Of a DNA stretch of 64,000 nt, positions 3,959 to 55,324 are shown in pieces (the first letter of the stretch is position 1; every line of letters starts with the position of its first letter). The position numbers and the translations under genes were made by a program. The notes beneath the pieces are model-generated. The model was not told where the DNA came from. It saw only the letters and a list, made by a program, of their open reading frames with translations, and did no database searches. The stretch is from NCBI GenBank assembly GCA_039920665.1, contig JBDSDH010000042.1:2532-66531 (forward strand), read 5' to 3'. Origin of the DNA: Ilumatobacteraceae bacterium. Lineage in GTDB: Bacteria > Actinomycetota > Acidimicrobiia > Acidimicrobiales > Ilumatobacteraceae.

Positions 3959-3959
3959 C

Positions 3960-5559: not shown

Positions 5560-5584
5560 TGGCCGCCAGATAGCGTTCTTTCTC

Positions 5585-36445: not shown

Positions 36446-36467
36446 GTTCATCTCTGGTTCATCCAGT
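36446..36467 (+). promoter_or_regulatory. PHO-box-like pair of 11-nt direct repeats upstream of pstS
   Basis: The plus strand reads GTTCATCTCTG GTTCATCCAGT, with 11-nt spacing, about 70 nt upstream of the pstS GTG. An AAGGAG RBS lies at 36526-36531. Confidence 0.5.
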
Positions 36468-36538
36468 CTCAGGGTTGTGTACACCTTGCTTGCTTACGGT
36501 TCTCCAATGTTGAACACACCCCTTCAAGGAGAACCAAC

Positions 36539-37762: not shown

Positions 37763-37886
37763 GCCACGACGGATCCCCCCGGTGGACCGGGCCTTCGGGC
37801 CCGGTCCGCTGTTGTCTGCCCACTTGAACCCGCCTGCCCACCTGAACCCTCCCGCCACGAACCCCAGCCGGCCCTCGAAGGATCGC

Positions 37887-38849: not shown

Positions 38850-39772
38850 TGCCGACAGCCATGCTCGAACGTCGAGAAACCCATCCCGTTTCAGTCGAAG
38901 ACCTTGCGGGGGTCGGTGGCCGCCGCAAGTTGAAGAACGCCGTAATGACTTCGCTGATGGGCGTGTCCGTCCTCATCATCCTGGTCGCGCTGATCCTGGT
39001 GCTCTGGACAGTAGTCACCAAGGGCTGGTCGATTGTGACCGGCATGTTCCCGGATTGGTTCACCGAAGACATCCAGTTGTCGCCTCGTCGCCCGGGGCCC
39101 GGCGTGAAGGCAGCGATCGTCGGCACCGTGATCACGACCGCCATGGCGTCAGTGATTGCGATCCCGCTCGGCATCGCCGGTGCGGTGTATCTCAACGAGT
39201 ACGGCAAGCGTGGATTGTTCGCTCGGATCCTGCGCTTTTTCACAAGTGTGATGGCCGGCGTGCCGTCGATCGTGATGGGCCTCTTCATCTACGTCTTCTG
39301 GGTCGTACCCCGCGGCACCGATGGACTCAACGGCTTCAGCGGCGCGCTGGCGCTCGCATGCCTGATGTTGCCGATCGTCGTCCGCTCGACGGAAGAAATG
39401 CTCAAGCTGGTCCCACAGAACCTGCGCGACGCGAGCTACGCACTCGGCGCGACCGGGAGCAGGACCACGCTCGGCATCGTGATCCCGAAGGCTTCGCCCG
39501 GCATCATCAGCGGCTGCCTGCTTGCCATCGCCCGTGCGGCCGGTGAGACGGCCCCGCTGATCTTCACGATCGGTGCCGCCAAACGAACGAACTGGAACGT
39601 GTTCGACGGCACGAACACCTCGCTCAGTCTGCAGATCTACAACAACGCCAAGGAGAGCTTCGCGACCGCCCAGGAACGGGCATGGGGAGCTGCGCTGACC
39701 CTCATCGTGCTCGCCGTCCTGTTCACCGCCGCGGCGCGGATCCTGTCCGCCCGCATCTCCAACAAGTCATAG
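38846..39772 (+). CDS. pstA: Phosphate ABC transporter permease PstA
   Basis: The start overlaps the pstC stop. Permease motifs [11 protein letters not shown] and [10 protein letters not shown]. Confidence 0.9.
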
Positions 39773-39777
39773 GCACC

Positions 39778-40698
39778 ATGAACTCCACCGACACGACTCA
39801 CGCCACCGACACAACCGATCTCGTCGACGACGTCGATATCTCGATCTTCGCGGCGGTGGGCACGACTCCTGTCGTCGTGCAGTCCGCGGCGTCTGACATA
39901 CCCGATCCGGGTCGCGAGTTGGTGTTCGACGTCGAGGACCTCGCCGTGTGCTACGGCGCGTTCACAGCCGTGCGCGAGGTGAACCTGAAGATTCGCCCGA
40001 ACGAGATCACTGCGTTCATCGGACCCTCCGGCTGCGGCAAGAGCACCGTGCTGCGCTGCTTCAACCGGATGAACGACACGATCGCAGGCGCACGAGTCGA
40101 CGGCAAGGTCGAGTATCGCGGCATCGACCTGTATGCCCCCGACGTGTCGGCGAACCAGGTCCGGCGTTACATCGGGATGGTGTTCCAGAAGCCGAACCCG
40201 TTCCCCAAGAGCATCTACGACAACGTCGCCTATGGCCCGCGTCTGATCGGCATCAGCAAGAAGTCCGAACTCGACGACATCGTCGAGCACTCACTCAAGG
40301 GCGCTGCATTGTGGGACGAGGTCGGCAACCGGCTCAAGTCGTCAGCACTCGGCCTGTCGGGAGGTCAGCAGCAGCGGCTGTGCATCGGCCGAGCGCTCGC
40401 GATCAAGCCCGACGTGATCCTGATGGACGAGCCCTGCTCGGCCCTCGACCCGATCGCGACGGCCCGGATCGAAGACCTGATGCAGGAGATCAAGAAGGAC
40501 CACACGATCCTGATCGTCACCCACAGCATGCAGCAGGCCGCTCGAGTCAGCGATCGCACGGCGTTCTTCACCACCGAGGTCAACGAGACCAACGATCGCC
40601 GCACCGGCATACTGGTCGAGTGCGACCGCACCGACCGGGTCTTTTCGAACCCGGCCGACGAGCGCACCGAGGCCTACGTCACGGGCCGCTTCGGCTGA
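39778..40698 (+). CDS. pstB: Phosphate ABC transporter ATP-binding protein PstB
   Basis: [35 protein letters not shown] and [14 protein letters not shown] at 39778. Confidence 0.95.
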
Positions 40699-40712: not shown

Positions 40713-42830
40713 TCAGGGGTCGAGTCGGCTTTGGGAAACCGTCGTGGGGTCGGCGCTGGGTGTGCGGCCGCGCTTCTGCTTGGCGCTGACCCAGTGATAC
40801 ATTCGCTCTTGGCTGTGCGGCTCGAATGCGTCGGCAGGCCCAACTCGCAGCCAGGTGTTGTCCGGCTGGAGATCGTAAGCAACGATGTCATCGGCGAGTT
40901 GAAAGGCGAGCACTTGGTCGATCCACGGCTGATGCTTGGGATGGGTGACCGGTACGAGCGTCTCGACCCGACGGTCGAGGTTGCGCGGCATCAGGTCCGC
41001 TGAACCGATCAGGAACAATGGCTTGGCCTCGTCAGCGGTGGACGAGGTCCCGTGGGCGAAGCGGTAGATCCGTGAGTGCTCGAGATAGCGACCGAGCACG
41101 CAGCGGACGCGGATGTTCTCCGACAGCCCCGGCACCCCCGCCCGCAGGCAACAGATACCGCGGACGAGCAGGTCGATCTGGGCACCGGCCGCGCTCGCTG
41201 CGTACAGGGCCTCGATCATCTCCGGATCACCGATCGAGTTGGTTTTGATCGCGATCCTGCCCGCCGCCCCATGGGACGCTTCGTTGGCGATCAGTTGCAG
41301 CAGCCGTGGCCGCAACGTGTGCGGCGCAACGACCAGCGCCTTGTAATCCTCGCCTCGGCTGTACCCGGTGAGGTGGTTGAACAGTTGCGTGGCATCCTCG
41401 CCGATCGCTGGATCACACGTGATGAAACCGATGTCTTCGTACAGACGAGCGGTCTTGGAGTTGTAGTTGCCGGTGCCCAGATGGACGTACCGACGCAGGC
41501 CGTCGGCGTCGTTGCGCACGACCAGCACGCACTTCGCATGGGTCTTGAGCCCGACCACGCCGTACACAACGTGCACACCGGCTCGCTCAAGCGTCTTGGC
41601 CCACGTGACGTTGGTGGCCTCGTCGAACCGGGCCTGCAGTTCGACCAACACGGCGACCTGCACGCCTCGTTCGGCAGCTCTCATCAGACTCCGAGCGATC
41701 GGGCTGTCGCCCGATGTCCGATACAGGGTCATCTTGATCGTCTGAACCCGCGGATCGTCGGCGGCCTCGGCGATGAACGCTTCGACCGAACTGGCGAAGG
41801 ACTCGTAGGGATGGTGCACCAGCAGGGCTCGCTCACGAACGACCGAGAACAGGCTGCGATCGGCTTCCTCGGCCGTGGCGATCCGGCCGGCGGTGACCGG
41901 CGGCCAGGGCACGTCCTTGAGCGTGGGCTTGTCGATGCCCTGCAGCGCGAAGAGGCAGGTGAGATCGAGCAACAGTCGGTGGTGGGTGACGCCATCCGGT
42001 TCGAGCTCGAGTTCGCGGAGCAGCAGTTCGAGCATTTCTGGGCTCATCGTCGCCTCGACCTCGAGCCGCACCGCACGTCCGAACCGGCGCCGACGGAGTT
42101 CGAGTTCGACCGCCACGAGGAGATCGTCAGCGTCTTCGTCCTCGAGCGTCAGGTCGGCATTGCGGGTGATCCTGAACGCTGCGACCTCTTCGATCTCCAT
42201 CCCGATGAACAGTGTGTGCAGGTGGGCAGCAATCACCTGCTCGAGCGGCACGAACCGCAGCCCGTCGGGCAACGCAACCAGGCGCGGCAGAATCGACGGC
42301 ACCTTCAAGCGGGCGAAGCGCCGTTCGCCGGTCTCCGGGTCACGAACGGTGGCCGCAAGGCTCAACGCCAGGTTGGAAATGTATGGAAACGGGTGGGCAG
42401 GATCGACGGCGAGCGGCGTGAGCACCGGGAAAATCCGCTGGCTGAAGATGTCGACCACGAAGCTGCGCTCGACCGGCGACAGTTCGGCCCAGGCAAGGAT
42501 CTCGATGCCTTCGTCCTGCAGCGCTGGCCGCAGTTCGTTGGCGAGCAGATCTTCTTGGATCGCGATCAGCTCGCGCACGATCTCACCGATCTCGTCGAGC
42601 TGTTGTTGGGGCTGTCGCCCGTCCGGGCCAGGCGTGACGATGCCGGCGGCAACCTGGTCGTGCAGCGCGGCGACACGAACCTGGAAGAACTCGTCGAGGT
42701 TGGCCGAGAAGATGGCCGCGAACTTGACCCGTTCGAGCAGAGGAATGCCGCGCTCACCAGCCAGCGACAGGACCCGTCGGTTGAACGCCAGCCAACTCAG
42801 TTCGCGGTTGAGATGTCGCTCGTCAAGCAC
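40713..42830 (-). CDS. ppk1: Polyphosphate kinase 1
   Basis: NRELSWLAFNRRVL, NLDEFFQVR, two PLD-like HKD regions (LKTHAKCVLVVR, YLEHSRI) and NLDRRVE. Confidence 0.95.
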   Translation of the reverse strand: MLDERHLNRELSWLAFNRRVLSLAGERGIPLLERVKFAAIFSANLDEFFQVRVAALHDQVAAGIVTPGPDGRQPQQQLDEIGEIVRELIAIQEDLLANELRPALQDEGIEILAWAELSPVERSFVVDIFSQRIFPVLTPLAVDPAHPFPYISNLALSLAATVRDPETGERRFARLKVPSILPRLVALPDGLRFVPLEQVIAAHLHTLFIGMEIEEVAAFRITRNADLTLEDEDADDLLVAVELELRRRRFGRAVRLEVEATMSPEMLELLLRELELEPDGVTHHRLLLDLTCLFALQGIDKPTLKDVPWPPVTAGRIATAEEADRSLFSVVRERALLVHHPYESFASSVEAFIAEAADDPRVQTIKMTLYRTSGDSPIARSLMRAAERGVQVAVLVELQARFDEATNVTWAKTLERAGVHVVYGVVGLKTHAKCVLVVRNDADGLRRYVHLGTGNYNSKTARLYEDIGFITCDPAIGEDATQLFNHLTGYSRGEDYKALVVAPHTLRPRLLQLIANEASHGAAGRIAIKTNSIGDPEMIEALYAASAAGAQIDLLVRGICCLRAGVPGLSENIRVRCVLGRYLEHSRIYRFAHGTSSTADEAKPLFLIGSADLMPRNLDRRVETLVPVTHPKHQPWIDQVLAFQLADDIVAYDLQPDNTWLRVGPADAFEPHSQERMYHWVSAKQKRGRTPSADPTTVSQSRLDP

Positions 42831-42883
42831 GAGCCAAGGATACTCCGACCCGGTTCGGCGAACGGGTGTTGGTCAGGTCGGGC

Positions 42884-43144
42884 TTATTCGTCCTCGTCGA
42901 GCAGGCCGAGATCCCATTCGAGGGAAATCGCTTCACGCTCGGCGTCGCGGATGATGCGCTCGCGGTTGCGACGGAATTGCGGATCGTCGCGAGGCAGCAG
43001 CACCAAACGGGCAAGGACCCGCGCCCGGAATTCGTCGATGACGGCCCGGTCGCCGTAGGCCCCGTAGACCTCCCAGTGCGGTGAGACGGGTCCGAGGTAG
43101 ACGATCTTGGCGTGGGCTCGAGGCTGAACGTTGATGTCGGTCAT
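42884..43144 (-). CDS. Hypothetical small protein (86 aa)
   Basis: ATG at 43144 gives MTDINVQPRAHAKIVYLGPVSPHWEVYGAYGDR..., with an acidic C-terminus. I recognise no family. Confidence 0.5.
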   Translation of the reverse strand: MTDINVQPRAHAKIVYLGPVSPHWEVYGAYGDRAVIDEFRARVLARLVLLPRDDPQFRRNRERIIRDAEREAISLEWDLGLLDEDE

Positions 43145-43397
43145 GGCAAAACTCCTGGCAGACGAGGCTCTAGACACTGCCCCTCGACAGTGCAGGGAGT
43201 GTATCGGCCGAAAGACTGATTGTCGGCTACGGCTGTTGGCAGGATGGACGAGTTGTGTTTGACTGACCTGCAACCGGGAACCGGACGGCTCCGTAGAACG
43301 TCTGAGGAGAGACGTGCTCTTTGGTCAGGAACCTGGGTCCCATCGGGGCTGGTGCGGGTGGACTACGCAGGCGTGGAATCTAGCGAAAGGCTCGTTC

Positions 43398-43694
43398 ATG
43401 CAGGATCAATCAAGGTCACAATCAGGACACGACTTCACGTCGGAAGACGCGGCGACCATCTGGATGTCGGAAGGCAACTGTCGAAACTATCCGCCGGCTG
43501 CATTCTTCCCCAGCGACGGCGTCGGCGTGGATCGGGCTCGCAAGATCTGTGCGACATGTCCCGTCGCCGACACATGTCTGGAGTACGCCTTGCACAACCG
43601 GATCGAACACGGTGTGTGGGGTGGATGCAGCGAGCGTGAGCGTCGTCGGATCCTCAAGCGTCGCCGCGGGCTGGCCCTCACCGCGGTGAGCTGA
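43398..43694 (+). CDS. WhiB-family transcriptional regulator
   Basis: Four Cys (C-x22-C-x2-C-x5-C: GNCRNY...ICATCPVADTC), a GVWGG turn and a basic tail (ERERRRILKRRR). Confidence 0.9.
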   Translation: MQDQSRSQSGHDFTSEDAATIWMSEGNCRNYPPAAFFPSDGVGVDRARKICATCPVADTCLEYALHNRIEHGVWGGCSERERRRILKRRRGLALTAVS

Positions 43695-43732
43695 CAGACA
43701 CGACAACGGCACCCACAACGAGAATCACAGAG

Positions 43733-43784
43733 AAAACCACAACGCCGGTGCCGCTTCTCGGAGCGGCACCGGCGTTGTGGTTTT
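43733..43784. terminator. Bidirectional intrinsic terminator between convergent whiB and tatA
   Basis: A perfect 23-bp stem (aaaaccacaacgccggtgccgct / agcggcaccggcgttgtggtttt) with a 6-nt loop. The A-run on the left and T-run on the right give a U-tract on both strands. Confidence 0.8.
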
Positions 43785-43883
43785 CAGACTTCAGATGAGT
43801 TCCCGTGTGCGACGAAGTCCCAAGCCCTGCCGCTCCAACAATGGTGCTGGGTCGATCCAAGGACCGGACCCGATCAGGTCAGA

Positions 43884-44123
43884 TCACGAGGGGTTGTCGG
43901 AGGCCTTGTCGATCTTGTCGAGACGAGCGAGCTTCTCTTCGATTGTCTCCTCGGTCGAGGCTGCGCCTTCGACCTTGCCCTGATCCAGCCCACGCTTGAA
44001 CTCGGTTTGGGCCTTGCCGAGGTTCTTGGCCAGTTTGGGGATCTGCGATCCGCCGAACAGGACGACCATGACGACGACCAGGATGATGATCTCTTGCGGT
44101 GAGTCGAGGAATGCTGGGAACAT
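43884..44123 (-). CDS. tatA: Twin-arginine translocase subunit TatA/E
   Basis: 79 aa with a TM helix (IIILVVVMVVLFGGSQIPKLAKNLGKA) followed by an amphipathic helix and an acidic tail. Confidence 0.9.
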   Translation of the reverse strand: MFPAFLDSPQEIIILVVVMVVLFGGSQIPKLAKNLGKAQTEFKRGLDQGKVEGAASTEETIEEKLARLDKIDKASDNPS

Positions 44124-44210
44124 GCGTTGAACCTTACCAGTGGGTCTGTTCGGAGCGGTAGGCGCTCACAGCGGTTTCTTTCGGTGCAGACCCCGAGGGA
44201 CCAGCGTTGA

Positions 44211-44531
44211 TCAGGCCGTCGCGGTACGACGGGTCGACTGTGCCCGCTGGCGGCGCAAGCGGCGACGTTCGCGCTCGCTGAGACCGCCCCAGATGCCGAA
44301 CTTCTCACCGTTGACCAACGCGAACTCGAGGCAGTCGAGGCGAACCACACAACCGCGGCACACCTCCTTGGCCTCACGAGTGCTCGCACCGCGTTCGGGG
44401 AAGAACAGGTCGGGGTCGACACCGAGGCAGTTGGCCTGGTCCTGCCAGCTCCGATCGTCTTCGGTGCCTGCGCCGCTGTGTGTTCCGCCATGTGTGTTCG
44501 GCGAGTGGATGTTGGAGAAGTTATTGGTCAT
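44211..44531 (-). CDS. WhiB-family transcriptional regulator
   Basis: ANCLGVDPDLFFP, EVCRGCVVRLDCLEFAL, GIWGG and ERERRRLRR. An AGGAGG RBS precedes the ATG at 44531. Confidence 0.9.
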   Translation of the reverse strand: MTNNFSNIHSPNTHGGTHSGAGTEDDRSWQDQANCLGVDPDLFFPERGASTREAKEVCRGCVVRLDCLEFALVNGEKFGIWGGLSERERRRLRRQRAQSTRRTATA

Positions 44532-44770
44532 CGTGTGGCCTCCTGCCTTTGTAGGCCGGGGTGCAATTGGCTCCGACGAGGTCGTCGGGGTGTGATCGCA
44601 CCCGTGTAATTACAATGGTGTCATTGTCCCCTATCACATCCCACCTTTGCAAGGGGGGATTTCACATTTGTCGGATTTCTCGCGCGATGAGCGCGAATCA
44701 CTGAACGCCGAGCACGTGCAGTCGCGCGCTTCGTGAGATCCAGCGACCCTCGAGCCAAACGGAAACCGGA

Positions 44771-46246
44771 TCAGCTGGCTTGGCGACCGCCGCGAGCCAT
44801 CCGCTTCTTGTTCTCGATGAAGTCGACCAGCACGAAATCACCCAGGTTTTCCGGTGTCGTGAAGAACGCCCGGCCGCGGTTGATCGAGGTCAACTTCTCG
44901 ATGAAGCTCTTCAGCGAACGGTCTGCGTCGAGCATGAACGTGTTGATCCGGATGTTGTCCTTGGTGCATCGGAGCACCTCGCGCAAGGTGGCCTCGACGG
45001 TCTCCTGGGTCGGCGGGTAGTTGAAGTACGGCTCACCGTTGGCACGGATATGAGCGGTTGGTTCGCCGTCGGTGATCATGATGATCTGCTTGGTTCCGGT
45101 CTGGCGCGACAGCAACTTGCGAGCAAGCATCAACGCGTGTTGCATGTTGGTGCCGTATGCAAAGTCCCAACTCACCTCGGGCAATTGCTCGGCTGTCAGG
45201 ATCCGGGCCACTTCGCCGAAGCCGACGAGGCCCATGTAGTCGCGCGGGAACTGCGAGGTGATCAAGGAGTGCAGGGCCATCGCGACTTTTTTTGCCGGGA
45301 GGAAGTTGTCGCGCATCGGCATGCTCATCGACAGGTCGAGCAACAGCACCGTCGCCGACTTGGTGACGTGCTCGGTGCGCTCGATTTCGAAGTCCTCCGG
45401 CGACAGGTGCACGGGCGTGCCGCCACCGCTGCGCCGCAGTGCGTTGCGGATCGTTCGTTGGAGGTCGAGGTTGAACGGATCGCCGTACTCGTACTGCTTG
45501 GTCTCGTAGGTGCGCTCGTGGCCCTGGCCGTGCAGATCCATCTGGTGCTGGCCGGTCTTGTCCTTGGCGAGCTTGCTGAACAGCTCGCGCAGTGCGTTGG
45601 AGCCGATCTTGCGCATCCCCTTCGGCGTGAGTTCGAGACGACCTTCCTTGTTCTGGATCAGGCCGGCCTCTTCGAGCATCTTGGCCATCTCGGCCAGCCG
45701 CTCGAGTGACCGAGCGGCGTCGTCACCCATCAGGTCGCGGACGCGATCCATGTCGGCTTCGGCCAGCGCGCTCGGGTTGGTGGCGTTGCGGAGCAGGTTC
45801 TCGAGCTGATCGAGCTCGCCGAGTTCCTGCATCATCTGCATCGCCTGACCCATGCCCATCGGGTCCTGGCCCTCGAACTCGTAGCTCTGGTTCCAGTTCA
45901 TCTGGGGGAACATGCTGCGCAGGTTCTGGCCGAGCTGATCCATCTGCCAGCGGAGGTCCATGTCTTCCATCAACTGATCGCTGAGCTGCTGCATCTGGGC
46001 CCGCTGCTCGGGCGTCATCGAGTTCATCATCGCCTGCATCGCAGCCATCCGCTTGGCCATGATCTCGAGCAGTTCGTCGAGCGACTCTGGGTTCTCCGGG
46101 AAGAAGTCGCCGAAGTTCTCCATGAACTGCTCGAACTGTGGATCCTCACCGCGCTGCTGCTTGTCGAGCATCTCGTTGAGACTGGCCAGCATGTCCTTCA
46201 TCCGGGCCATGTCTTTGGGCGACATGTTCTGCATCTCGCCGCTCAT
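44771..46246 (-). CDS. VWA (von Willebrand A / CoxE-like) domain protein, apparently lacking its N-terminal ~200 aa
   Basis: A Met/Gln/Glu-rich helical region (MQNMSPKDMARMKDML..., MTPEQRAQMQQL) is followed by a C-terminal VWA domain with MIDAS residues (LLLDLSMSMP, GTNMQHAL, ITDGEPTA). There is an in-frame stop 5 codons upstream of the ATG and no MoxR-type ATPase partner upstream. Confidence 0.75.
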   Translation of the reverse strand: MSGEMQNMSPKDMARMKDMLASLNEMLDKQQRGEDPQFEQFMENFGDFFPENPESLDELLEIMAKRMAAMQAMMNSMTPEQRAQMQQLSDQLMEDMDLRWQMDQLGQNLRSMFPQMNWNQSYEFEGQDPMGMGQAMQMMQELGELDQLENLLRNATNPSALAEADMDRVRDLMGDDAARSLERLAEMAKMLEEAGLIQNKEGRLELTPKGMRKIGSNALRELFSKLAKDKTGQHQMDLHGQGHERTYETKQYEYGDPFNLDLQRTIRNALRRSGGGTPVHLSPEDFEIERTEHVTKSATVLLLDLSMSMPMRDNFLPAKKVAMALHSLITSQFPRDYMGLVGFGEVARILTAEQLPEVSWDFAYGTNMQHALMLARKLLSRQTGTKQIIMITDGEPTAHIRANGEPYFNYPPTQETVEATLREVLRCTKDNIRINTFMLDADRSLKSFIEKLTSINRGRAFFTTPENLGDFVLVDFIENKKRMARGGRQAS

Positions 46247-47549
46247 CTTGTCGACGCTCGATCATGTTGAACAGACGACGCACGTTGATGTACGTCCAGT
46301 CGGTGTTTGACGACAGGGTGCGAGCACCCCAGACGCGAATGCCGCGGGTACCGAAGGGACGAATGCAGTTGATCCCCATCGGGTTGAGCAGACCCTGCTC
46401 GGCCATCGTGATGTTCATCTCGACATCGAGCGCGCCGCGAACGACCTCGTTGGCCGGGGCCTTCCAGACACCACGGGTGTCGTCGGTGCGAGCCCAGATG
46501 CCGGCCATGTGGCCGGACGGGGGAACCATGACCTCGGTGTCTCCGTTGTCGACCGACGCCGGGTTGCTGACCTTGATCCACGGGTAGTAGAACGCCGCGA
46601 ACTGGCTGTCGTACATCGCCACGCCTTCGCGCCACTCCTTGACTTGCTGGGGCGACATACCGGGAGGTGCATCGAGCACGGCCATCCGGTTTGCCTGGCC
46701 CTCACAATGGTTGATCAGCGCGAGCTGCACCGACTTCCACATGTTGAGGTCGACGGTGCCGTCATCCTTGGTGGCCGCGGTGATCAGGTCGGGGATCATG
46801 ACCATCGTGACGTCGTCGGCGATGACCAGACCGTTGATCCCGGTGCGAGCGGTCTCGGAACCCGTGAAGGCACGGCCGGAGACCGGCGTCGGGTTGGCCG
46901 GGGCCGGCTCGATGCTGTACAAACCGGCCGGGATCGAAGCGAGGTCGTTGACGAGCTTCTCGGTGTCGATCTTGGTGGCCACCTTGACCTTGGTGGACTC
47001 CTTGTTGATGATCGTCTCAGCCTGACGCTTGCCGGTGGCGAGTGTGAGGTTCGGGTACGACTCGACGACCTTGCCACCCTCGACCACATCGATCGTGAAC
47101 GTCGGCGGATCCGTTTCCTTGGCATCGTCGGCTGGCGCCTCGGGCGTCACCGACAGGGCAATGGCAGCGTTGGGCTCGACGGTCGTGACCTCGAGCGCCG
47201 GCCCGAGGCTGCGGTCTGCCGATGGCAGGGCACGGGTGCCGCTCTCGGTGGCCGGGGTGCTGTTGGGGATGCGCACGATGTAGGCCAGGCTGCCACCGTT
47301 GTTGAAGTAGCCGTAGACCGAGTGAGGCAGCATGATGCCGGGGGCGAAGCCGCCGAACAGCTTCTCGAATTGGGTCCAATTGGTGACCAGCCGGGGCTTG
47401 ACGCCATCCGGATCGGTCAGGTCATCGGTTGGTGCCTTCGCGGTGAAGCCGACAAAGGCGGCAACTGCGGTTGCCCCTGCCGACAGCGTCGCTGAACTGG
47501 ACGCCACCTCTTCTACATAGACGCCAGGCGTGAGATAAGTTGCGGCCAC
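46146..47549 (-). CDS. Phage tail sheath family protein (contractile injection system sheath), C-terminal end replaced by out-of-frame tail
   Basis: N-terminal AATYLTPGVYVEEV and C-terminal-domain motifs GVWKAPAN, LNPMGINCIRPFGTRGIRVWGARTLS and DWTYINVRRLFNMIE. The GTG at 47549 lies 8 nt after a GGAGGGG RBS. After NMIE the ORF reads 37 Arg/Gln/Asp-rich codons that overlap the VWA ORF. Confidence 0.8.
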   Translation of the reverse strand: MAATYLTPGVYVEEVASSSATLSAGATAVAAFVGFTAKAPTDDLTDPDGVKPRLVTNWTQFEKLFGGFAPGIMLPHSVYGYFNNGGSLAYIVRIPNSTPATESGTRALPSADRSLGPALEVTTVEPNAAIALSVTPEAPADDAKETDPPTFTIDVVEGGKVVESYPNLTLATGKRQAETIINKESTKVKVATKIDTEKLVNDLASIPAGLYSIEPAPANPTPVSGRAFTGSETARTGINGLVIADDVTMVMIPDLITAATKDDGTVDLNMWKSVQLALINHCEGQANRMAVLDAPPGMSPQQVKEWREGVAMYDSQFAAFYYPWIKVSNPASVDNGDTEVMVPPSGHMAGIWARTDDTRGVWKAPANEVVRGALDVEMNITMAEQGLLNPMGINCIRPFGTRGIRVWGARTLSSNTDWTYINVRRLFNMIERRQDERRDAEHVAQRHGPDEGHAGQSQRDARQAAAR

Positions 47550-47801
47550 GATCAATTCCCCTCCGTTGAGCTCATTGTGTACTAAACCTTCGCATCAGAT
47601 GCGTTACTCGACAAATTCGCTGCTGAGGCGGGCTCAGCAACCAATCAGTGGATTTCGGTGCCCCTTCAACGATCTGCCCGGTGAAGATTCCTACGTCGAC
47701 CCGCGGCAACAATAACAAGACTGCGTCCACAATGCGAGAAGTTCTTGCTCCTCTCCGTGAGGTTCTTTTGCAGAGGCCACTGATCGCGCCGCGATCCGAT
47801 T
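47550..47801 (-). promoter_or_regulatory. About 250-nt non-coding, lower-GC leader between the DUF4280 gene and the sheath gene
   Basis: The only open frame here has roughly 55% GC3 by eye, versus much higher in neighbouring genes. A small hairpin (gctgag-gcggg-ctcagc) lies at about 47621-47637. Confidence 0.3.
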
Positions 47802-48191
47802 TCAGGGGACGGTGATGGTGACCGCCGGCGACATGGTCACCGAGATCACGCCGCCCCAGTTGCACATGCATTTCGACGTGTTGTTGAGTGCCGGCATCTT
47901 GCCGATCAGCACTGTCGGCGCGCCCGGAGCCCACGGAGCGGCAACGGCCGGAATGCACGGCATCGGGGTCAACACACCCAATGCCGCCGCAGTGGCAGCA
48001 GCAACGATGGGGTTGGAGAGCGTCGTGCACATGCCGAACGGCAGGATGTTCAACAGCGGCTTGTTGTCCATGATGGTCGCGACCGGCTGATTCAGACCCA
48101 TCGTCTGGTTGGTCGGCACGACCATCATCGTCGACGGTGCAAGACCGAACGAACACATCAGGACGCTTCCGTTGACGACAGGCTGGGCCAT
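47802..48191 (-). CDS. DUF4280 (PAAR-like) domain protein
   Basis: MAQPVVNGSVLMCSFGLAPSTMMVVPTN..., PFGMCTT, PMPCIP, WAPGAPTVLIGKMPALNNTSKCMCNWGGVISV. The conserved Cys pattern and length match DUF4280. ATG at 48191. Confidence 0.8.
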   Translation of the reverse strand: MAQPVVNGSVLMCSFGLAPSTMMVVPTNQTMGLNQPVATIMDNKPLLNILPFGMCTTLSNPIVAAATAAALGVLTPMPCIPAVAAPWAPGAPTVLIGKMPALNNTSKCMCNWGGVISVTMSPAVTITVP

Positions 48192-48271
48192 GCCTCGGAC
48201 TGTATCGCAGCCGCCACGCCACAACATGGGGCAGGTGACGCCGTAGCCGCTGTCCATGATTGACTGAGCGG

Positions 48272-50149
48272 ATGTCTCCGAAGGCGGTCGCCAACCCTCG
48301 TTCCGCTGACGCTGCTTCAGGGGTGCCCGATGCGTGGCGCGAGTTCGGTCGATTGTCGATCGAACATCTCACCGCTCCAGTTGACGCGGCACCGCAAGCG
48401 CGAGTGGCGCTCGAGCATCAGCTCGATGTCGCACGCGCCGCGTTCATCGAATCGCTCGACCTGGCGTATCCGTTCTCCTCCATTGTCGCCAACGCGCGTC
48501 TGTCCCCCGCCGCGTCGGCGTTGCTCGCAATCGCGGTGTCGTGTGAACTCGACGGCCGGCTGGCCCGGCTCGTCGCCCACCTCAACGACGATCTCGCCCG
48601 GCCACGGCTCACCCTGCAGACCATCGACCAATTGATGCGCAACAACGGTTCGTCGGTGGCGGAGGTGCTCGGCCTGGATGCCCCGCTGCGTCGCTGCGCA
48701 TTCGTCGAGGTGATCGAGGACGGACCGTGGGCCAACCATGCCCTGGTCGTCGCCGCAGGTGTCGTCTGGGCGCTCGTCGGCGATGGCGCGATCGATCCGC
48801 TCGTGCCGTCCAATGTGCTCGTCGTCGCGGATGACGGCACGGGTGGCGGCGAGGTGGGTGACGATCTCGTGGTGGTCACCGGTGACGACCGCATCCTGCG
48901 ACGCCGCGAAGCGGCGCGGCGGGCGTCGGCGACACGGTTCCTCGTCGTCGACCAGCCGACCGAGACCAACGTCTGGAATGCGATCGTGCGCGAGGCGACG
49001 TTGTCCGGGATGGGCATCATCATCGAACTCGAAGAACCGCTGTCTGCGCAAGGGCAACGCGTGATCGGTCGCAGCGACCACCTCGCCTGGGCACTCAGCT
49101 CGCGCAAGGAACTGGCCATCGCCGACATGCCCAATCGCCGCTGGCGCGAAATTCGCGCCGAACATCGCGATCCCACGTCGCAGGATTGGAACGACGCGGT
49201 CGGCACGGTGGACGCACATCGCCACCACCTGTCCGCCGAGCAGCTCGATCTCGTCGGTCGGGCGTTCGAAGCCCACGATCGTGACCTCGACAGTGCAGTC
49301 CGCCGGTTGATGGCCGGCCCGCTCGAACAATTGGCCCAGCGGATCCGGCCGACGCGTACATGGGACGACATCGTCCTCAGCCCCGAGCGGTTGCGCCATT
49401 TGCACGGCATCGTCGATCGCTACCGGTATGCGTCGACGGTGTTCGACGACTGGGGATTTTCGGACAAGCCATCGCGGGGTCTGGTCGCGATGTTCTCCGG
49501 GCCGTCCGGCACCGGCAAGACCCTGGCCGCCGAGATTGTCGCCGGTGAGCTCGGACTCGATGTGTTCAAACTGAATCTGTCGGCCGTCGTCAGCAAGTAC
49601 ATCGGCGAGACCGAGAAGAACCTCGAACAGATCTTCGACGCCGCCGGCAGCGGCAATGTGGTGTTGTTCTTCGACGAGGCCGACTCGCTGTTCGGCAAGC
49701 GCAGCGAGGTCAAAGATGCTCGCGACCGTTACGCCAACATCGAGGTGTCGTACCTGCTGCAGCGTCTCGAGCGCTACGACGGTGTGGTTCTACTCGCGAC
49801 CAACTTCGAGAAAAACGTCGACGATGCGTTCCTGCGCCGGATCCACGCCCGGATCGAGTTCCCGGTGCCAGGTTCCAACGAGCGCGAACAGATCTGGATC
49901 CGAAACTTCCCGGCGGGCGCTCCCGTCGACGACGTCGATTTCGGGTTCTTGGCCGAACAGTTCGAGATGCCGGGCGGCGCGATCCGCAACGCCGTCATCC
50001 ACGCTGCGTTCCTCGCTGCAGCGGAGGGCCAACGGATCTCGATGGGCCACGCCGTACAAGCCGTGGCTCGCGAATACCGCAAAATGGGCAGGTTGCTCAA
50101 GCCAGATCATTTCGGCCCGTACTTCAACCTCGCCAAATCTGCCGAGTGA
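48272..50149 (+). CDS. AAA+ ATPase with long N-terminal domain (eCIS Afp15/Pvc15-like architecture)
   Basis: Walker A GPSGTGKT (49499-49522), Walker B VLFFDEAD (49661-49684), SKYIGETEKNL, LLATN and DDAFLRR. The AAA module is preceded by ~400 aa of uncharacterised sequence. The start is ATG 48272 or TTG 48260. Confidence 0.9.
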   Translation: MSPKAVANPRSADAASGVPDAWREFGRLSIEHLTAPVDAAPQARVALEHQLDVARAAFIESLDLAYPFSSIVANARLSPAASALLAIAVSCELDGRLARLVAHLNDDLARPRLTLQTIDQLMRNNGSSVAEVLGLDAPLRRCAFVEVIEDGPWANHALVVAAGVVWALVGDGAIDPLVPSNVLVVADDGTGGGEVGDDLVVVTGDDRILRRREAARRASATRFLVVDQPTETNVWNAIVREATLSGMGIIIELEEPLSAQGQRVIGRSDHLAWALSSRKELAIADMPNRRWREIRAEHRDPTSQDWNDAVGTVDAHRHHLSAEQLDLVGRAFEAHDRDLDSAVRRLMAGPLEQLAQRIRPTRTWDDIVLSPERLRHLHGIVDRYRYASTVFDDWGFSDKPSRGLVAMFSGPSGTGKTLAAEIVAGELGLDVFKLNLSAVVSKYIGETEKNLEQIFDAAGSGNVVLFFDEADSLFGKRSEVKDARDRYANIEVSYLLQRLERYDGVVLLATNFEKNVDDAFLRRIHARIEFPVPGSNEREQIWIRNFPAGAPVDDVDFGFLAEQFEMPGGAIRNAVIHAAFLAAAEGQRISMGHAVQAVAREYRKMGRLLKPDHFGPYFNLAKSAE

Positions 50150-50200
50150 GCAAGCTGTCGGGTCAGAACAACCTGCCGACACAGACCGAGAGGACGCACG

Positions 50201-51346
50201 ATGGCGTGGAACTTCCTGCAGGTGGTCGAGATCGGGGCGACCTCGTACGGCATCTATCCGGTGCCGACCGGCGCGCACGGCAACGATCTCGGCATTGCAT
50301 CAACCGATCGTGACACCAACCCGACCGTCGTGCCGATCGCGGGTCTGAAGGTACTGCGGGCCACCAACGACGGGACGTGGGTGCCATCGCTGAACGTGCT
50401 GCGCACCAAGGGCCGACTGGTGATCACCGACGACCGACTGGCGGTGACGTTCGACAAGTTCGTGCCCAAGGACCTCGGTTCGTTCGATCCAGTAGCGGTC
50501 GAACGGCCCGACGGCGGCCGATCGAAACGCCCCAAGCAGATGTTGGTCGGTCACGTCGCACTCGGCCAGATCCGCCAGATCGGTGTCCGCCAGGGTCACG
50601 GTCACGGTCACGGTCACGGTTCGAACGACAAGGGCTCCCGAGACGCGATCAACGACGGGCTCGGCAGCGTGATCATCGCGGCCGTCGATGCCACCGACAC
50701 GATCGTGATCGACCAGCACGCCGGTGTGGTGGTCGCGATCGAGATCATCATCGGCGCATCGGTCGACCCGGTCCCGGTGGTCAACGATGTCCTGGCGCGG
50801 TTGATGACCGAGCGGCTCCGGACGTCGGCCCTCGAGGTCGACCAACCAACTCGCGACGCCTGGGCCGAGATGGCACGCATCGGCTTCACACCGCCTGCGG
50901 GCGAGGTCCAGACCTACGACTTCGATCGCAGCCAACCGGTTCGGCGCGTCGCTGCCCACATCACGACCCACCATCTGATCCCGCCGACCGACACGTCCCC
51001 GGTGCCGACGATGTTGCCGACGCCGGCGCTGGCAATGCCGGCGCTGGCTGGGCCATCCCCGGCTGATCCGGCCTCCGCTGATCCGGCCTCCGCTGATCTG
51101 GCCTCCGCTGATCCGGCCTCCGCACCGACCGGGCATCGGCCCCTGCCGGCGCCGGTGCTGTCGCGACCATCGGGTCCCGAGCCATCACGCCCGGGCGTGT
51201 TCCTGCCGGCGCCGCCTCCGCCCGGATCGACGGCGGAGTGGCGAACAGACCCGTTCGCCCGTCACGAATTGCGATTCTGGGACGGATTCGGCTGGACCGA
51301 GCACGTCCACAGCAACGGTCAGCAGAGCGCCGACCCGCCCCGCTGA
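50201..51346 (+). CDS. Hypothetical protein with C-terminal DUF2510 motif, HG and PASAD repeats
   Basis: The C-terminus WRTDPFARHELRFWDGFGWTEHV matches the DUF2510 signature. Internal repeats are (HG)4 and (PASAD)4. The N-terminal ~230 aa are unrecognised. Confidence 0.7.
   Translation: MAWNFLQVVEIGATSYGIYPVPTGAHGNDLGIASTDRDTNPTVVPIAGLKVLRATNDGTWVPSLNVLRTKGRLVITDDRLAVTFDKFVPKDLGSFDPVAVERPDGGRSKRPKQMLVGHVALGQIRQIGVRQGHGHGHGHGSNDKGSRDAINDGLGSVIIAAVDATDTIVIDQHAGVVVAIEIIIGASVDPVPVVNDVLARLMTERLRTSALEVDQPTRDAWAEMARIGFTPPAGEVQTYDFDRSQPVRRVAAHITTHHLIPPTDTSPVPTMLPTPALAMPALAGPSPADPASADPASADLASADPASAPTGHRPLPAPVLSRPSGPEPSRPGVFLPAPPPPGSTAEWRTDPFARHELRFWDGFGWTEHVHSNGQQSADPPR
50594..50620 (+). repeat. Hexanucleotide repeat (ggtcac)x4.5 encoding HGHGHGHG
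   Basis: Read directly in the sequence. Confidence 0.9.
51062..51121 (+). repeat. 15-bp tandem repeat x4 (gctgatccggcctcc; one C>T variant)
   Basis: Read directly in the sequence. It encodes ADPAS ADPAS ADLAS ADPAS. Confidence 0.9.
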
Positions 51347-52302
51347 ACGCGCTGGCCCCGCAAACCCGGCAGACACCTGGGAACGAATCGGGCCCGTTGC
51401 CACAAGAGAGGGCCGGCAATTGCGGCAGCGGCGAGTGCCGCCGTCGCCTGATTCATCAGGGTGATCGCCGCCGCAACATCGCCGGCGGCTGCACGACGAC
51501 CGTCTCCGAGCACGCCCCGGTCCTCGATGACATCGCCATAGCGGTTCGCGCCACCGAGGCGAATGCCGAGAGCTGCCGCGAACGCGGACTCGATCACACC
51601 GCCATTCGGCGAAGGATGCTGGGCGGCATCGCGGCGAACAACTCGCTGGATCGCGTTCGCCCGGCCGGGACGCACCCCGGCAACGGTGATCGCTGCAAGT
51701 CGCGCCGGGAGCCAGTTGGCCACGTCGTCGAGGCGCGCGCTCGCCCAACCGAAGCGTTCGTAGCGCGGCGAATGGTGACCCACCATGGCGTCGAGGGTGT
51801 TGACAGCTCGGTGAGCGAGCACGAGTGGCGCGCCACCGATGACGGCCCACATGATCGGAGCGATCACCGCATCGACCGAGTTCTCCGCAACCGATTCGAT
51901 GACCGCTCGGGCCACCTCTGTCTCGGACAGATGGGTCGCCGTCCGCCCGACGAGCGACGGCAGACGGGCCCGGGCGCTCGCCAGGTCCCCGGCCGCGAGC
52001 AAGTCGCCGATCGCCGCTGCTTCTCGGCCGAGCATCCGCCCGGCGACCGCGATCGAGACCGCTGCAGCGGTCGCAGCTGGTCGACCGAGCAGGCGCTGCA
52101 ACCCGACTCCGATCAGTGTTGCGCCACCGACACCGATGGCGCAGAACACCACACCAGCAGTCTTCGAGTTGCGGTACCACTGCGTCTCCAGGGCAGTCAT
52201 CGCCTGCCCGAACCGGGCCACTGGATGGACGGCGACTGGTGGTTCGCCGACGAAGCGATCGATGGCGAGACCGAGCGCGATCGCAGCTCCGGTTGCACGC
52301 AT
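51319..52302 (-). CDS. cbiB: Adenosylcobinamide-phosphate synthase CbiB/CobD
   Basis: LAIDRFVGEPP..HPVARFG, AENSVDAVIAP, HHSPRYERFGWASARLDD and ANWLPARL. Confidence 0.9.
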   Translation of the reverse strand: MRATGAAIALGLAIDRFVGEPPVAVHPVARFGQAMTALETQWYRNSKTAGVVFCAIGVGGATLIGVGLQRLLGRPAATAAAVSIAVAGRMLGREAAAIGDLLAAGDLASARARLPSLVGRTATHLSETEVARAVIESVAENSVDAVIAPIMWAVIGGAPLVLAHRAVNTLDAMVGHHSPRYERFGWASARLDDVANWLPARLAAITVAGVRPGRANAIQRVVRRDAAQHPSPNGGVIESAFAAALGIRLGGANRYGDVIEDRGVLGDGRRAAAGDVAAAITLMNQATAALAAAAIAGPLLWQRARFVPRCLPGLRGQRVQRGGSALC

Positions 52303-52340
52303 CGGCGTACCCTACGGGCGGCGGCTACTCTGCACGTGTC

Positions 52341-54242
52341 ATGCCGAATCTGCGAGAACGCGTCGAGCAGAGGGACCGGGCTGCGTTCGTCGGGCGCGTC
52401 GACGAGCTGGCGTGTTTCGATGCGATCCTGTCCGGCGCTGACCCGCGCAGCATCGTCCATGTGAGCGGCCCGGCTGGGATCGGCAAGAGTACGCTGCTGC
52501 GAGAGGTGGCCCGGCGGGCGCGATCCGCCGGCTATTCGGTGCGGTCGCTCGAGGGTCGCGATCTGCCGCCGTTCCCCGAGGCATTGGAGTCCGCGATCGG
52601 CCCGGTGACCACCGACGGTCCGCCACTCCTCATCATCATTGACTCCTACGAGTTGGTCGGGTCGCTCGACGGCCATCTGCGTTCGGTCATCGTTCCGATG
52701 CTGCCGGACTCGTCGATCATCGTCCTGGCCGGACGAACGAGGCCAGGGCCGGCGTGGTTCGAAGGTGGATGGGACGCCGTCTCGCGAACGATCGAGGTTC
52801 TCGGCATCGGCCACAGCGATGCGGTCGCGCTCGTTCGCCATCACGGACTCGGAATCGACCGGGTCGACGAGATCGTGCGTCGCAGCGGCGGGTCGCCACT
52901 GGCACTCGTGATCGCGGCCCAAGCCGGCGGCGATGGATCGATGGCCGATCTGCTCGACCGGCTGCTCGGCGCCGAAGCCGAGCCCCAGCGAGCGCGCGTG
53001 CTCGGTGTGGCTGCACTGGCGCGGGTGACCACACCCGAGTTGCTCGAAGCGGTGCTGCCGTCGGATGATCCGCACGAGAGTTACAAGTGGCTGGCCGATC
53101 GATCATTCGTCGAACCACTGGCCGACGGGGTCGCCCTCCACTCGCTCGTCGCCCAGTCGATCCGCGACTCGTTGCGCGATCGTGATCCATCCGGAGAGGC
53201 ATCGCTGCGCCGACGTGTCGCGGATTACCTCTATCAACGAGCCCTCGCCGGCCAGTTCTCGTTGTCCACCGATCTCCAGCACCTCGTCATCGACCAGACC
53301 GTCCGCTGGGGGTACTCGCTCGATGTCGGCAGCCGCTACCACATCGATTCGGTGCGGCCAGGCGACGCCGACGTCGTCGGTGGGATTCTGCGGTCGGTCG
53401 GAGTCGGGGCTTGGTGGGACCTGACCGAGGTGTTCTTCACCGATCATCCCGAGTGCACCGGTGTCGTCCGCGATCGCAATGGCCGTTTAGGCGGGTATTA
53501 CGTCGCTGTTTCACCGGCCGCACCGCCCCAGGCTGCCCTCGACGACGTGCTTCTCGGCCCGTGGTTGCGTCATGCCCGCGACGTGTTGCGAACCAACTCC
53601 GCAGTGTTGTGGCGTGAGGCAGTCGATCTGACCGGCCAGATGGGCGAGGTCACATCGCTGCTCGGCTCGGCCGGGATCATCGGCAGCGGCGTGGTCAACC
53701 CGCGCTACGGCTACCTGCCCATCTCGCCGACGCTGCCGGCCGCGCTCGCGTTTGCCGAAGCACTGGGCGCGGCCCACATCTCGGAACTCGACGTCGCCAC
53801 CGGCGGGATGGATCTGCAGTGCTACCTCATCGATTTCGGACCCCAGGGCGTGCTCGCGTTCCAGCGCGACTGGGTGTATCGCGAGTCCGGGGCCAACCCA
53901 CCGCGACCGGTCGCCGGTGACGATGATGCCGGCCAACTGATCCGGATGCTTCGCGATCCAGCGGCGCTCGCTCACGGGCCGTCGTGGCTCGGTTCCGTAC
54001 CGTCGGTCCGGATCGAACGGTTGCGCGAGCTGGTCCGCGAGTCGCTCGGCGTGTTCGGCTCATCGGCCGACGATCGCCTCGCCCACACCATCATCACCGC
54101 TGCCTACATCGACGAGCCGGCCGCCCACGAGTCGATCGCTCGTCGGCTCCATCTCAGCCGCTCGGCGTACTTCCGTCGACTGCAATCAGCCACGACCCGG
54201 CTCGGTGACGAGCTTGCTGCCCGCCGTCGACAATCGTTCTGA
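52341..54242 (+). CDS. STAND/AAA16-type P-loop NTPase with C-terminal helix-turn-helix
   Basis: FVGRVDELACF...VHVSGPAGIGKSTLL (Walker A), LLIIIDSYE (Walker B-like), GGSPLAL, and a C-terminal HTH-like segment IARRLHLSRSAYFRRL. Confidence 0.7.
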   Translation: MPNLRERVEQRDRAAFVGRVDELACFDAILSGADPRSIVHVSGPAGIGKSTLLREVARRARSAGYSVRSLEGRDLPPFPEALESAIGPVTTDGPPLLIIIDSYELVGSLDGHLRSVIVPMLPDSSIIVLAGRTRPGPAWFEGGWDAVSRTIEVLGIGHSDAVALVRHHGLGIDRVDEIVRRSGGSPLALVIAAQAGGDGSMADLLDRLLGAEAEPQRARVLGVAALARVTTPELLEAVLPSDDPHESYKWLADRSFVEPLADGVALHSLVAQSIRDSLRDRDPSGEASLRRRVADYLYQRALAGQFSLSTDLQHLVIDQTVRWGYSLDVGSRYHIDSVRPGDADVVGGILRSVGVGAWWDLTEVFFTDHPECTGVVRDRNGRLGGYYVAVSPAAPPQAALDDVLLGPWLRHARDVLRTNSAVLWREAVDLTGQMGEVTSLLGSAGIIGSGVVNPRYGYLPISPTLPAALAFAEALGAAHISELDVATGGMDLQCYLIDFGPQGVLAFQRDWVYRESGANPPRPVAGDDDAGQLIRMLRDPAALAHGPSWLGSVPSVRIERLRELVRESLGVFGSSADDRLAHTIITAAYIDEPAAHESIARRLHLSRSAYFRRLQSATTRLGDELAARRRQSF

Positions 54243-55157: not shown

Positions 55158-55324
55158 GCGCTCGATCCTGCGCCACGATGGCGTCTGACACAACGTCAGT
55201 TGGTCATTGTGTCCATCTTGTGACCCGATCAACCACGACCCGAACGAGCGGACCGAGAGAAGCAGCGATTGTCCGATTGTCCGATAGCTGGTCTGCGACC
55301 GCTGCGGGCTGCGAGGATCGGCAG

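Follow-up and report, generated by a model that had tools for sequence, protein, structure and literature searches.

The join of a CIS sheath gene and a VWA gene on the minus strand of a 64,000-nucleotide window (the whole stretch of Ilumatobacteraceae DNA that was analysed, to which all positions refer) raises two questions: whether both genes are cut at one and the same point, and whether the join was made in the cell or during assembly. To the first the answer is plain. Both genes are truncated at a single junction, the sheath gene being without its 3' end and the VWA gene without its 5' end. This is a deterministic fact of the sequence, and chance therefore does not enter into it. The features of the locus are as follows.

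40713..44459, left-flank anchors collinear with relatives: WhiB (44211-44459), TatA, second WhiB, an 87-aa gene and polyphosphate kinase (40713-42830)
44771..46255, minus strand, 3' part of a VWA gene of the Rv0959/Mb0984 type; homology from Val-Asp 46255-46250, annotated ORF from ATG 46246
46146..46256, minus strand, out-of-frame tail of the sheath ORF; by translation, 36 unrelated codons (RRQDERRDAEHV...) and a stop at 46148-46146
46256..46259, breakpoint, where sheath homology stops and VWA homology starts (blastn end points and base comparison)
46257..47549, minus strand, CIS/phage-tail sheath gene, 5' part; Glu 46259-46257 is codon 431 counted from the probable GTG start 47549 and codon 433 from TTG 47555
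46262..46264, minus strand, TGA stop in the VWA frame, in sheath-derived sequence just upstream of the join (translation)
47802..48191, minus strand, intact DUF4280 (PAAR-like) gene; Pfam E = 3.2e-33, 70% identity to the counterpart at the related locus L001; MEO6126455.1
48260..50149, plus strand, intact, divergently transcribed CIS-associated AAA+ ATPase gene; Pfam AAA E = 5e-27, 81% identity over 631 aa to L001
50201..55702, right-flank anchors collinear with the related loci L001 and L095: DUF2510, CobD, nSTAND/AAA_16 NTPase, EamA and a 134-aa gene

Truncation of the sheath gene

A Pfam scan of the sheath ORF (47555..46146, minus strand) detected the subtilisin-like Phage_sheath_1 domain (PF04984, E = 1.7e-22, residues 259-414) and no Phage_sheath_1C (PF17482). 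The real start is probably the GTG at 47549, which stands behind GGAGGGG; the alternative is the TTG at 47555. Over residues 1-433 the fragment shares 95-96% amino acid identity with the intact proteins P0002 and P0001, and its likeness to intact relatives stops at ...RRLFNMIE, the final Glu being codon 46259-46257. Exactly 95 residues follow FNMIE in P0001, P0002, P0007 and P0026 (TAIMNGTQYAVFEPN...PAEFVIFRIAQIKETSA), and it is exactly these C-terminal residues, the Phage_sheath_1C domain (...VFEPN...PAEF...), that the fragment lacks. Both sheath domains are present in all 120 best homologues, which are 499-557 aa in length and each cover at most 92% of the query. The 36-codon tail is an alternative frame of the VWA gene, and no homologue among the 120 best matches covers it.

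An earlier reading of the sequence alone (hereafter the sequence-only reading) held that the sheath gene was 3'-truncated after ...NMIE by some 90-100 residues, and proposed HMM and pairwise comparisons. These bore the claim out, with Phage_sheath_1 present, Phage_sheath_1C missing and the protein 95 residues short. Translation agreed with its further statement that the end of the sheath ORF is the VWA gene in another frame, stopping at 46146. The 467-aa product corresponds to MEO6126454.1/MEO6491802.1, annotated as 'phage tail sheath subtilisin-like domain-containing protein'.

Truncation of the VWA gene

The VWA ORF (46246..44771, minus strand) encodes 491 aa compared with 670-674 aa in relatives, to which it shows 88-92% amino acid identity across its entire length. 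The alignment begins at about residue 176-184 of the relatives and the first Met corresponds to their M180/M184, so that the gene is 5'-truncated as had been claimed, some 180 residues in where about 200 had been estimated. The missing N-terminal part contains the PF27532 helical domain, and tblastn with the genes of relatives gave no match to it anywhere in the window. Upstream extension of the ORF is precluded by the in-frame TGA at 46264-46262, a stop that the sequence-only reading had also placed correctly; the ATG, supplied by a conserved in-frame Met, lies 10 nt past the join. The Pfam scan recovered the MIDAS-type VWA_2 domain in the C-terminal part (E = 1e-7, residues 299-395) and listed neither PF27098 nor PF27532, although its library copy may predate both models; precomputed hits place PF27098 (Rv0959_3rd, the middle domain) in relatives that align over the full window ORF. 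The fragment is identical to MEO6126453.1/MEO6491801.1, annotated as 'VWA domain-containing protein'.

In relatives the VWA protein always reaches the N-terminus except where the contig stops short or a frameshift divides the gene. Among the best 120 matches only P0172 (529 aa) is short, its contig ending within the gene; contig ends also cut five of the species-representative loci, and a further two are split into two frames.

Structure of the junction

Homology at the DNA level to sheath loci ends at 46257 or 46258, and that to VWA loci at 46254-46259, as determined by blastn. Base-by-base comparison with five relatives indicates that the parent genes share 0-3 bp at the join, at most GAG (46259-46257). 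The proposal of one breakpoint for both genes thus holds; the interval originally given for it, 46250-46256, does not, and is narrowed to 46256-46259. No runs of N or leftover sequence occur at the join, nor do an integrase, transposase, tRNA or terminal repeat, and a search of 44000-48500 for repeats, traces of mobile elements, promoters and terminators yielded nothing above chance.

The junction is internal to an 85-kb MAG contig and does not fall at a contig end. A codon-degenerate 40-nt pattern representing it had no match in JGI metagenome contigs, and the fusion tail was found in a protein collection of 5.8 billion clusters only as the source's own entry. The two GenBank accession series appear to lie on one identical contig. 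Tblastn with all CIS and VWA-upstream genes of relatives revealed neither the missing halves nor a reciprocal junction within the window, which excludes an inversion with both ends inside it. The literature on CIS and on Rv0958/Rv0959 provided context and nothing specific to the junction.

Gene content of the flanks

The CIS cluster of relatives begins with DUF4280. At L001 and L095 an intact CIS operon continues past the sheath gene, while tblastn of all L001 CIS proteins matched the window only at the AAA ATPase, DUF4280 and residues 22-462 of the sheath; genes for the tube, spike (VgrG-like), gp25 and baseplate-J proteins are absent from the window. This is in keeping with the earlier claim that the rest of the CIS structural operon is missing here.

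On the other side of the junction, the order WhiB-TatA-WhiB-PPK downstream of the VWA gene is conserved in relatives. An Rv0958-like ATPase gene is situated 1.5-8 kb upstream of their VWA gene, in nearly all of the 80 species-representative loci whose contig extends that far, and had no match in the window by tblastn. The absence of this partner, described earlier as MoxR-type, is therefore confirmed for the window, but its supposed direct adjacency to the VWA gene is not: in relatives two genes of the opposite strand, for GH1 and a cyclase, separate them. These divergent genes are likewise absent from the window. A sigma/anti-sigma pair missing downstream of the VWA gene was considered as a second deletion and rejected; the closest relatives also lack the pair, and its absence is thus unrelated to the junction.

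Arrangement in related genomes

The survey took in 80 species-representative genomes, along with over 120 clusters each for sheath and VWA. Apart from contig-end cuts and frameshift splits, the sheath and VWA genes are whole in the relatives surveyed. None of the 80 species-representative loci has a CIS gene within 10 kb of the VWA gene, and a search for CIS-VWA neighbours at 80 VWA loci and 5 sheath loci found none. Three genomes allowed both to be placed: in one they stand 496 kb apart on a single chromosome, and in the other two, where they are on different contigs, the separation is no less than 104 kb in one case and 67 kb in the other. On the closed chromosome OZ257157.1, the sheath gene (2,488,559-2,490,124, plus strand) is upstream of, and co-oriented with, the VWA gene (approximately 2,986,120-2,988,153, plus strand). 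The genomic context of the CIS cluster differs between relatives; in two of them, giant CarboxypepD_reg-repeat genes and not the VWA neighbourhood lie beyond the end of the operon.

These distances make a small local deletion unlikely. Of the features of such a deletion, the low-homology junction free of mobile elements was found, and neighbouring flanks were not. The simplest explanation advanced in the sequence-only reading, a deletion removing the rest of the CIS operon and the start of the VWA module, implies that the two were adjacent, which they are not in relatives. If real, the event would be a very large deletion, or an inversion or translocation, as opposed to a local loss.

Composition and divergence of the fragments

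Tetranucleotide composition correlates across the join with r = 0.991, compared with 0.978-0.990 for splits within the left flank. Relative to the MAG GCA_031410915.1, dS is 0.65 for the sheath gene and 0.61 for the VWA gene. The shared composition and similar divergence indicate that both flanks derive from a single genome or population. GC skew was too noisy over the window to show an inversion.

Neither fragment is decayed. On the window branch dN/dS is about 0.04 for the sheath gene (derived from pairwise values) and 0.04-0.10 for the VWA gene, no higher than between intact orthologues. The long genes of the window align to relatives without frameshifts, which suggests that the assembly is accurate; it is probably a short-read assembly, in which case k-mers spanning the junction must derive from reads.

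Origin of the junction

On the second question we lean, with moderate assurance, towards a real and very recent non-homologous rearrangement, a large deletion or inversion, in the sampled Ilumatobacteraceae population. We infer the existence of the join in cells, and likewise the type of event, from several observations. The two homologies meet within 4 bp, and the join is clean of repeats, IS elements, Ns and leftover sequence. De Bruijn-graph misjoins depend on a k-mer of some 20 bp at least that both sides share, and the window and the five relatives contain none. Both flanks belong to one genome or population by composition and dS, the long genes free of frameshifts speak for an accurate assembly, the junction lies within the 85-kb contig and not at its end, and the topology of OZ257157.1 is that which a deletion requires. 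Set against this, the source is a MAG and the junction occurs in no independent assembly; relatives keep both genes, and loss of the ATPase-VWA pair would be unusual; the distances in relatives call for a deletion of 496 kb, or of no less than 67 kb or 104 kb, depending on the genome; and the lack of decay is equally expected of an artefact.

An assembly error, the alternative already named in the sequence-only reading, is accordingly a serious possibility, if not the one we incline to. It would be an intragenomic misjoin (a relocation, chimeric read or merging step) of two distant loci, the genes being intact in the cells. The MAG origin of the contig and the want of a second assembly with the junction fit such an error, as do fragments that by dN/dS look like parts of working genes, loci far apart in every relative where they can be placed, a VWA-ATPase module otherwise intact across relatives, and flanks of equal composition, as expected for a misjoin within one genome. 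The usual signs of a chimera (a repeat or k-mer common to both sides of the join, a gap of Ns, a compositional break) were not found, however. The parents share only 0-3 bp, not the repeat or k-mer that graph-based short-read assemblers need; the window has no Ns and the join is deep within a long contig. Assemblers, moreover, normally discard chimeric reads where the true paths are better covered, which also counts against a misassembly.

Two further explanations fare worse. Insertion or translocation of an island, whereby a segment ending in the sheath 5' fragment and its upstream genes landed in the VWA gene and left the VWA 5' part at its far end beyond the window, is very improbable. The varied contexts of the CIS cluster among relatives imply that it moves over evolutionary time, and the 17.7 kb rightward of the junction do not contain the VWA 5' part, as this explanation allows; but L001 and L095 share the right-flank genes CobD, nSTAND and EamA, which form an ordinary chromosomal context, the join has no integrase, transposase, tRNA or terminal repeat, and the same event must also truncate the sheath gene. 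A natural origin of the two short forms, with NMIE as the normal end of the sheath and MSGEMQNM as the normal start of the VWA protein in this lineage, is effectively refuted. GenBank treats both as ordinary proteins and a conserved in-frame Met provides the VWA start, yet Phage_sheath_1C occurs in all 120 best sheath homologues, with no short sheath among them, short VWA proteins are explained by contig ends and frames, those of relatives being otherwise full to the N-terminus, and the 36-codon sheath tail is merely out-of-frame VWA sequence. Homologues naturally ending at ...NMIE or starting at MSGEMQNM, which the sequence-only reading had named as contrary evidence, were looked for and none was found.

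Under the rearrangement that we favour, the sheath gene would have been broken after codon Glu-433 and the VWA gene near codon 181, and end joining or illegitimate recombination would have united the ends over 0-3 bp of microhomology. A large deletion is the single event that would best match the one closed relative with co-oriented genes, and would have taken the sheath 3' end, the remaining 11 kb or so of the CIS operon, the intervening DNA, the Rv0958-like ATPase, GH1 and cyclase genes and the VWA 5' end. An inversion would produce the same junction if the sheath and VWA genes were oppositely oriented in this lineage. In either event no CIS could presumably be built from the locus, and a VWA protein made from ATG 46246 would be without its N-terminal domain and its ATPase partner. 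A narrower version is unlikely, though not negligibly so: that the join exists in most cells of a free-living freshwater population, and that it arose by a single deletion of approximately 70-500 kb with near-zero microhomology, which removed a complete CIS and the ATPase-VWA module, a module otherwise whole in all species of the family that were sampled. If true, the population would represent a natural knock-out in which CIS and the ATPase-VWA module are both dispensable in situ, and the VWA remnant might be transcribed from the strong sheath promoter.

For curation, MEO6126454.1/MEO6491802.1 and MEO6126453.1/MEO6491801.1 are fragments joined at a breakpoint and should be treated as pseudogenes or a possible misassembly, and the MAG should not be counted as CIS-positive from its sheath match. 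Should the join be real, it would record a recent large non-homologous rearrangement in an uncultured acidimicrobial lineage with loss of a family-wide module, a modest point for studies of genome dynamics.

Comparison with known systems

The reference for actinobacterial CIS is the Streptomyces CIS-Sc type of the eCIS superfamily (PMC10020575, PMC12237407, PMC6899500). The canonical set in relatives comprises an AAA+ ATPase, DUF4280/PAAR-like protein, sheath, Phage_T4_gp19 tube proteins, DUF6760, a large eCIS_core protein, LysM/CIS_tube, VgrG-like (Phage_GPD/Phage_base_V), gp25 and baseplate-J-like proteins and Tail_P2_I. The window has the first three genes in the same order, but only the ATPase, DUF4280 and the first 433 sheath codons, the sheath C-terminal domain, tube, spike and baseplate being missing; its CIS genes are a remnant and not a system. 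The second parent is the Rv0958/Rv0959-type module of Actinobacteria, in which an AAA+ (Mg-chelatase/MoxR-like) ATPase accompanies a VWA protein with PF27532 (Mb0984_helical), PF27098 (Rv0959_3rd) and PF13519 (VWA_2). Here the window keeps the VWA domain and the downstream WhiB-TatA-WhiB-PPK synteny and is without the N-terminal 180 or so residues, the cyclase, GH1 and the ATPase partner.

The junction itself resembles the scars of end-joining deletions and inversions in that it links unrelated coding sequences over 0-3 bp of microhomology, involves no mobile element and destroys both frames; unlike typical scars, it unites loci that are neighbours in no relative, which would make the event unusually large. 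It also resembles relocation-type misassemblies of MAGs, with distant loci joined, flanks of equal composition and a join present in no other assembly, but differs from these by the absence of the usual repeat or shared k-mer. The junction is an ordinary rearrangement scar or an assembly error, and not a new biological system or mechanism.

Truncation of the sheath and VWA genes

On the minus strand, the 5' part of a contractile injection system (CIS) sheath gene meets the 3' part of a VWA gene of the Rv0959/Mb0984 type, giving two successive ORFs:

47555..46146, minus: tail-sheath-like ORF, from translation
46246..44771, minus: VWA ORF of 491 aa with a VWA_2 domain (Pfam), the next ORF after the sheath

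The sheath gene probably starts at GTG 47549, just after GGAGGGG. Its ORF matched Pfam Phage_sheath_1 (E=1.7e-22, residues 259-414) and yielded no Pfam match to Phage_sheath_1C. The best 120 matches among 5.8 billion protein clusters were considered; both sheath domains were present in 120/120 of these homologues, which ranged from 499 to 557 aa and each gave a query coverage of at most 92%. The closest, P0001 (96%) and P0002 (95%), run ...DWTYINVRRLFNMIE, then TAIMNGTQYAVFEPN...KPAEFVIFRIAQIKETSA. After the last shared Glu, the sheaths of four relatives have exactly 95 more residues; the window sheath has 36 unrelated codons, then a stop. The fusion tail was found in no other protein of the cluster collection among the best 120 matches. 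Judged against its homologues, the sheath gene is 3'-truncated, as the sequence-only reading had proposed.

The VWA ORF is preceded by an in-frame TGA (46264-46262), and its first Met aligns with M180/M184 of homologues that are 88-92% identical across all 491 residues. These have a full size of 670-674 aa and an N-terminal PF27532 (Mb0984_helical) domain, absent from the window. By this alignment the VWA gene has lost its 5' part, in line with the same reading. When the VWA N-terminus was inspected in 80 GTDB species-representative loci, the alignment extended to residue 1-9 in all bar seven: five run off the end of a contig, and two, from long-read MAGs, are split into two frames. The splits (L043, 9436-11452, and L047, 9475-11440, both MFD MAGs) break near residues 104-193 and probably reflect frameshift errors, not a biological split. 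P0172 (529 aa), the sole short VWA protein in the match list, was also cut by a contig end. Since VWA N-termini are intact in relatives, the short loci being due to contig ends or two-frame splits, natural short forms were ruled out and carry a negligible probability.

Exact-sequence matching identified the 467-aa sheath fusion ORF as MEO6126454.1/MEO6491802.1 and the 491-aa VWA fragment as MEO6126453.1/MEO6491801.1. GenBank lists both (44771-47549) as ordinary, complete proteins and not as pseudogenes or partial genes. Each protein found bears both accession series (MEO6126/MEO6491) with identical offsets, and one contig was counted; the two records are therefore probably the same contig and not independent. 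The GTDB species representatives do not include the source genome, and the junction pattern had no match in JGI metagenome contigs.

Position of the join

Using blastn, matching to the window ended at 46257 or 46258 for five sheath loci and at 46254-46259 for the VWA loci. Compared base by base, the window reads ...AACATGATCGAG up to the join and CGTCGACAAGATGAGC... beyond it, sheath relatives continue past this point as ...GAGACCGCGATC... and VWA relatives read ...CAGACCGTCGATCAGATGAGC... there. These end points and this comparison place the join within 46256-46259, with GAG at most common to both genes. The joint breakpoint first read from the sequence was thus right to within a few bases. 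The GTCGAC palindrome is part of the VWA gene. No repeats or traces of mobile elements were found around the join, and there is no N in the whole window.

Synteny of the flanks

Genes of the right flank (46257-55700) run collinear with those of the relatives' loci L001 and L095, in the order nSTAND NTPase, CobD, DUF2510, AAA+ ATPase, DUF4280 and sheath; the DUF4280 and AAA+ ATPase genes of the window are intact. Beyond the sheath, both loci continue into a complete CIS operon encoding tube proteins, DUF6760, a large eCIS_core protein, LysM/CIS_tube, VgrG-like, gp25, baseplate-J-like and Tail_P2_I proteins. In two relatives, where the operon occupies about 12.9 kb counted from the start of the sheath, giant CarboxypepD_reg-repeat genes come directly after it on the other strand. 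These CarboxypepD_reg/SpaA-like proteins (L091, 12980-21935; L093, 12930-21935), of 2349-2606 aa and >819 aa, may be a conserved CIS neighbour in the clade.

In the left flank the genes match, in collinear order, those that relatives have downstream of VWA (WhiB, TatA, WhiB, an 87-aa gene and polyphosphate kinase, PPK). The order ATPase, GH1, cyclase, VWA, WhiB, TatA, PPK is kept in nearly all 80 species-representative loci, with GH1 and cyclase on the opposite strand. None of the missing CIS, ATPase, GH1, cyclase or VWA 5' pieces was found anywhere in the window.

Several other features lie away from the join. The DUF2510 protein (50201-51346, plus), with PASAD-type proline/alanine repeats, is 52% identical to its L001 counterpart, as against 67-84% for adjoining genes, and is therefore fast-evolving. 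Many relatives have a sigma-70-family factor and a ~330-aa gene between VWA and WhiB (L005, 6079-7556; L007, 12111-13621). This pair is absent from 44459-44771 of the window and from the closest VWA relatives (L009, L010, L014, L015 and L026), a subclade-level indel unconnected with the junction. A phosphate-uptake-like set (36380-40698; PBP_like_2 binding protein and ABC ATPase at 39682-40698, plus) sits between PPK and a PstB/PhoU/HisK/response-regulator block that directly follows PPK in L007, relative to which the set is an insertion or rearrangement. A DUF4331 protein (61633-63858, minus) has three tandem repeats of ~125 aa in its C-terminal half (61654-62769); in L003, a 989-aa protein encoded upstream of VWA (2895-5864) has a C-terminus with 40-46% identity to them. 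MEO6126464.1 (58324-60147, minus), annotated 'nickel transporter', has a central low-complexity segment of long Gly-Ser and His-Asp/Asp-Arg dipeptide runs.

Divergence and composition

Divergence of the sheath fragment
Window vs L002: dN 0.021, dS 0.55
Window vs L001: dN 0.0235, dS 0.45
L001 vs L002, both intact: dN 0.021, dS 0.41

The three sheath fragments are roughly equidistant. Three-taxon branches from these pairwise values gave a sheath dN/dS of ~0.04 on the window branch, the two intact genes having 0.04 and 0.08. In the VWA fragment, dN/dS was 0.04-0.10 in window pairs against 0.035-0.135 in intact pairs, with 9 singleton changes in the window against 2-8 in others. Neither fragment shows decay; the join is therefore very recent or else not biological.

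Origin of the join

The sequence-only reading had offered a deletion or rearrangement and an assembly chimera as alternatives, and these are the right ones. Its simplest version, a local deletion of adjoining modules, finds no support in synteny: no CIS genes lay within 10 kb of VWA in the 80 loci, and no VWA-upstream genes in the sheath loci.

Location of the sheath and VWA genes in relatives
OZ257157.1 (closed MAG chromosome, 5.26 Mb): sheath 2,488,559-2,490,124, plus; VWA about 2,986,120-2,988,153, plus; co-oriented, 496 kb apart
GCA_031410915.1: different contigs, separation at least 67 kb
GCA_038227995.1: different contigs, separation at least 104 kb

A deletion, if responsible, would be large; it needs co-orientation as in OZ257157.1, yet co-orientation would in any case be expected half the time by chance.

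A real, recent rearrangement is given slightly better than an even chance, and if real, a deletion is favoured somewhat over an inversion or a translocation. That a large segment was inserted or translocated into VWA is very improbable. An intragenomic misjoin during assembly is a substantial possibility, falling short of even: the join is without independent support, both genes are intact in all other cases, their loci are far apart in relatives, and decay is completely absent. Against it, a misjoin by a graph-based short-read assembler arises where k-mers are shared, and none is shared at the join, which lies far inside a long contig (85,190 bp); the window's long genes are also free of frameshifts, suggesting accurate data. 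A cross-species chimera is unsupported, as tetranucleotides correlate at 0.991 between the flanks (0.978-0.990 for splits inside the left flank) and divergence from one reference MAG is about equal for both.

Were the rearrangement real, a CIS could not be formed from the window locus, the sheath C-terminal part and the tube, spike and baseplate genes being absent. The C-terminal part of contractile sheaths takes part in the inter-subunit mesh. The VWA remnant would retain its VWA domain but neither the N-terminal domain nor its ATPase partner, and could be read from ATG 46246, for which no ribosome-binding site is evident, on a transcript from the sheath promoter. Little follows beyond annotation hygiene: the join is an ordinary breakpoint, of the kind left by a pseudogene-forming rearrangement or a misassembly.
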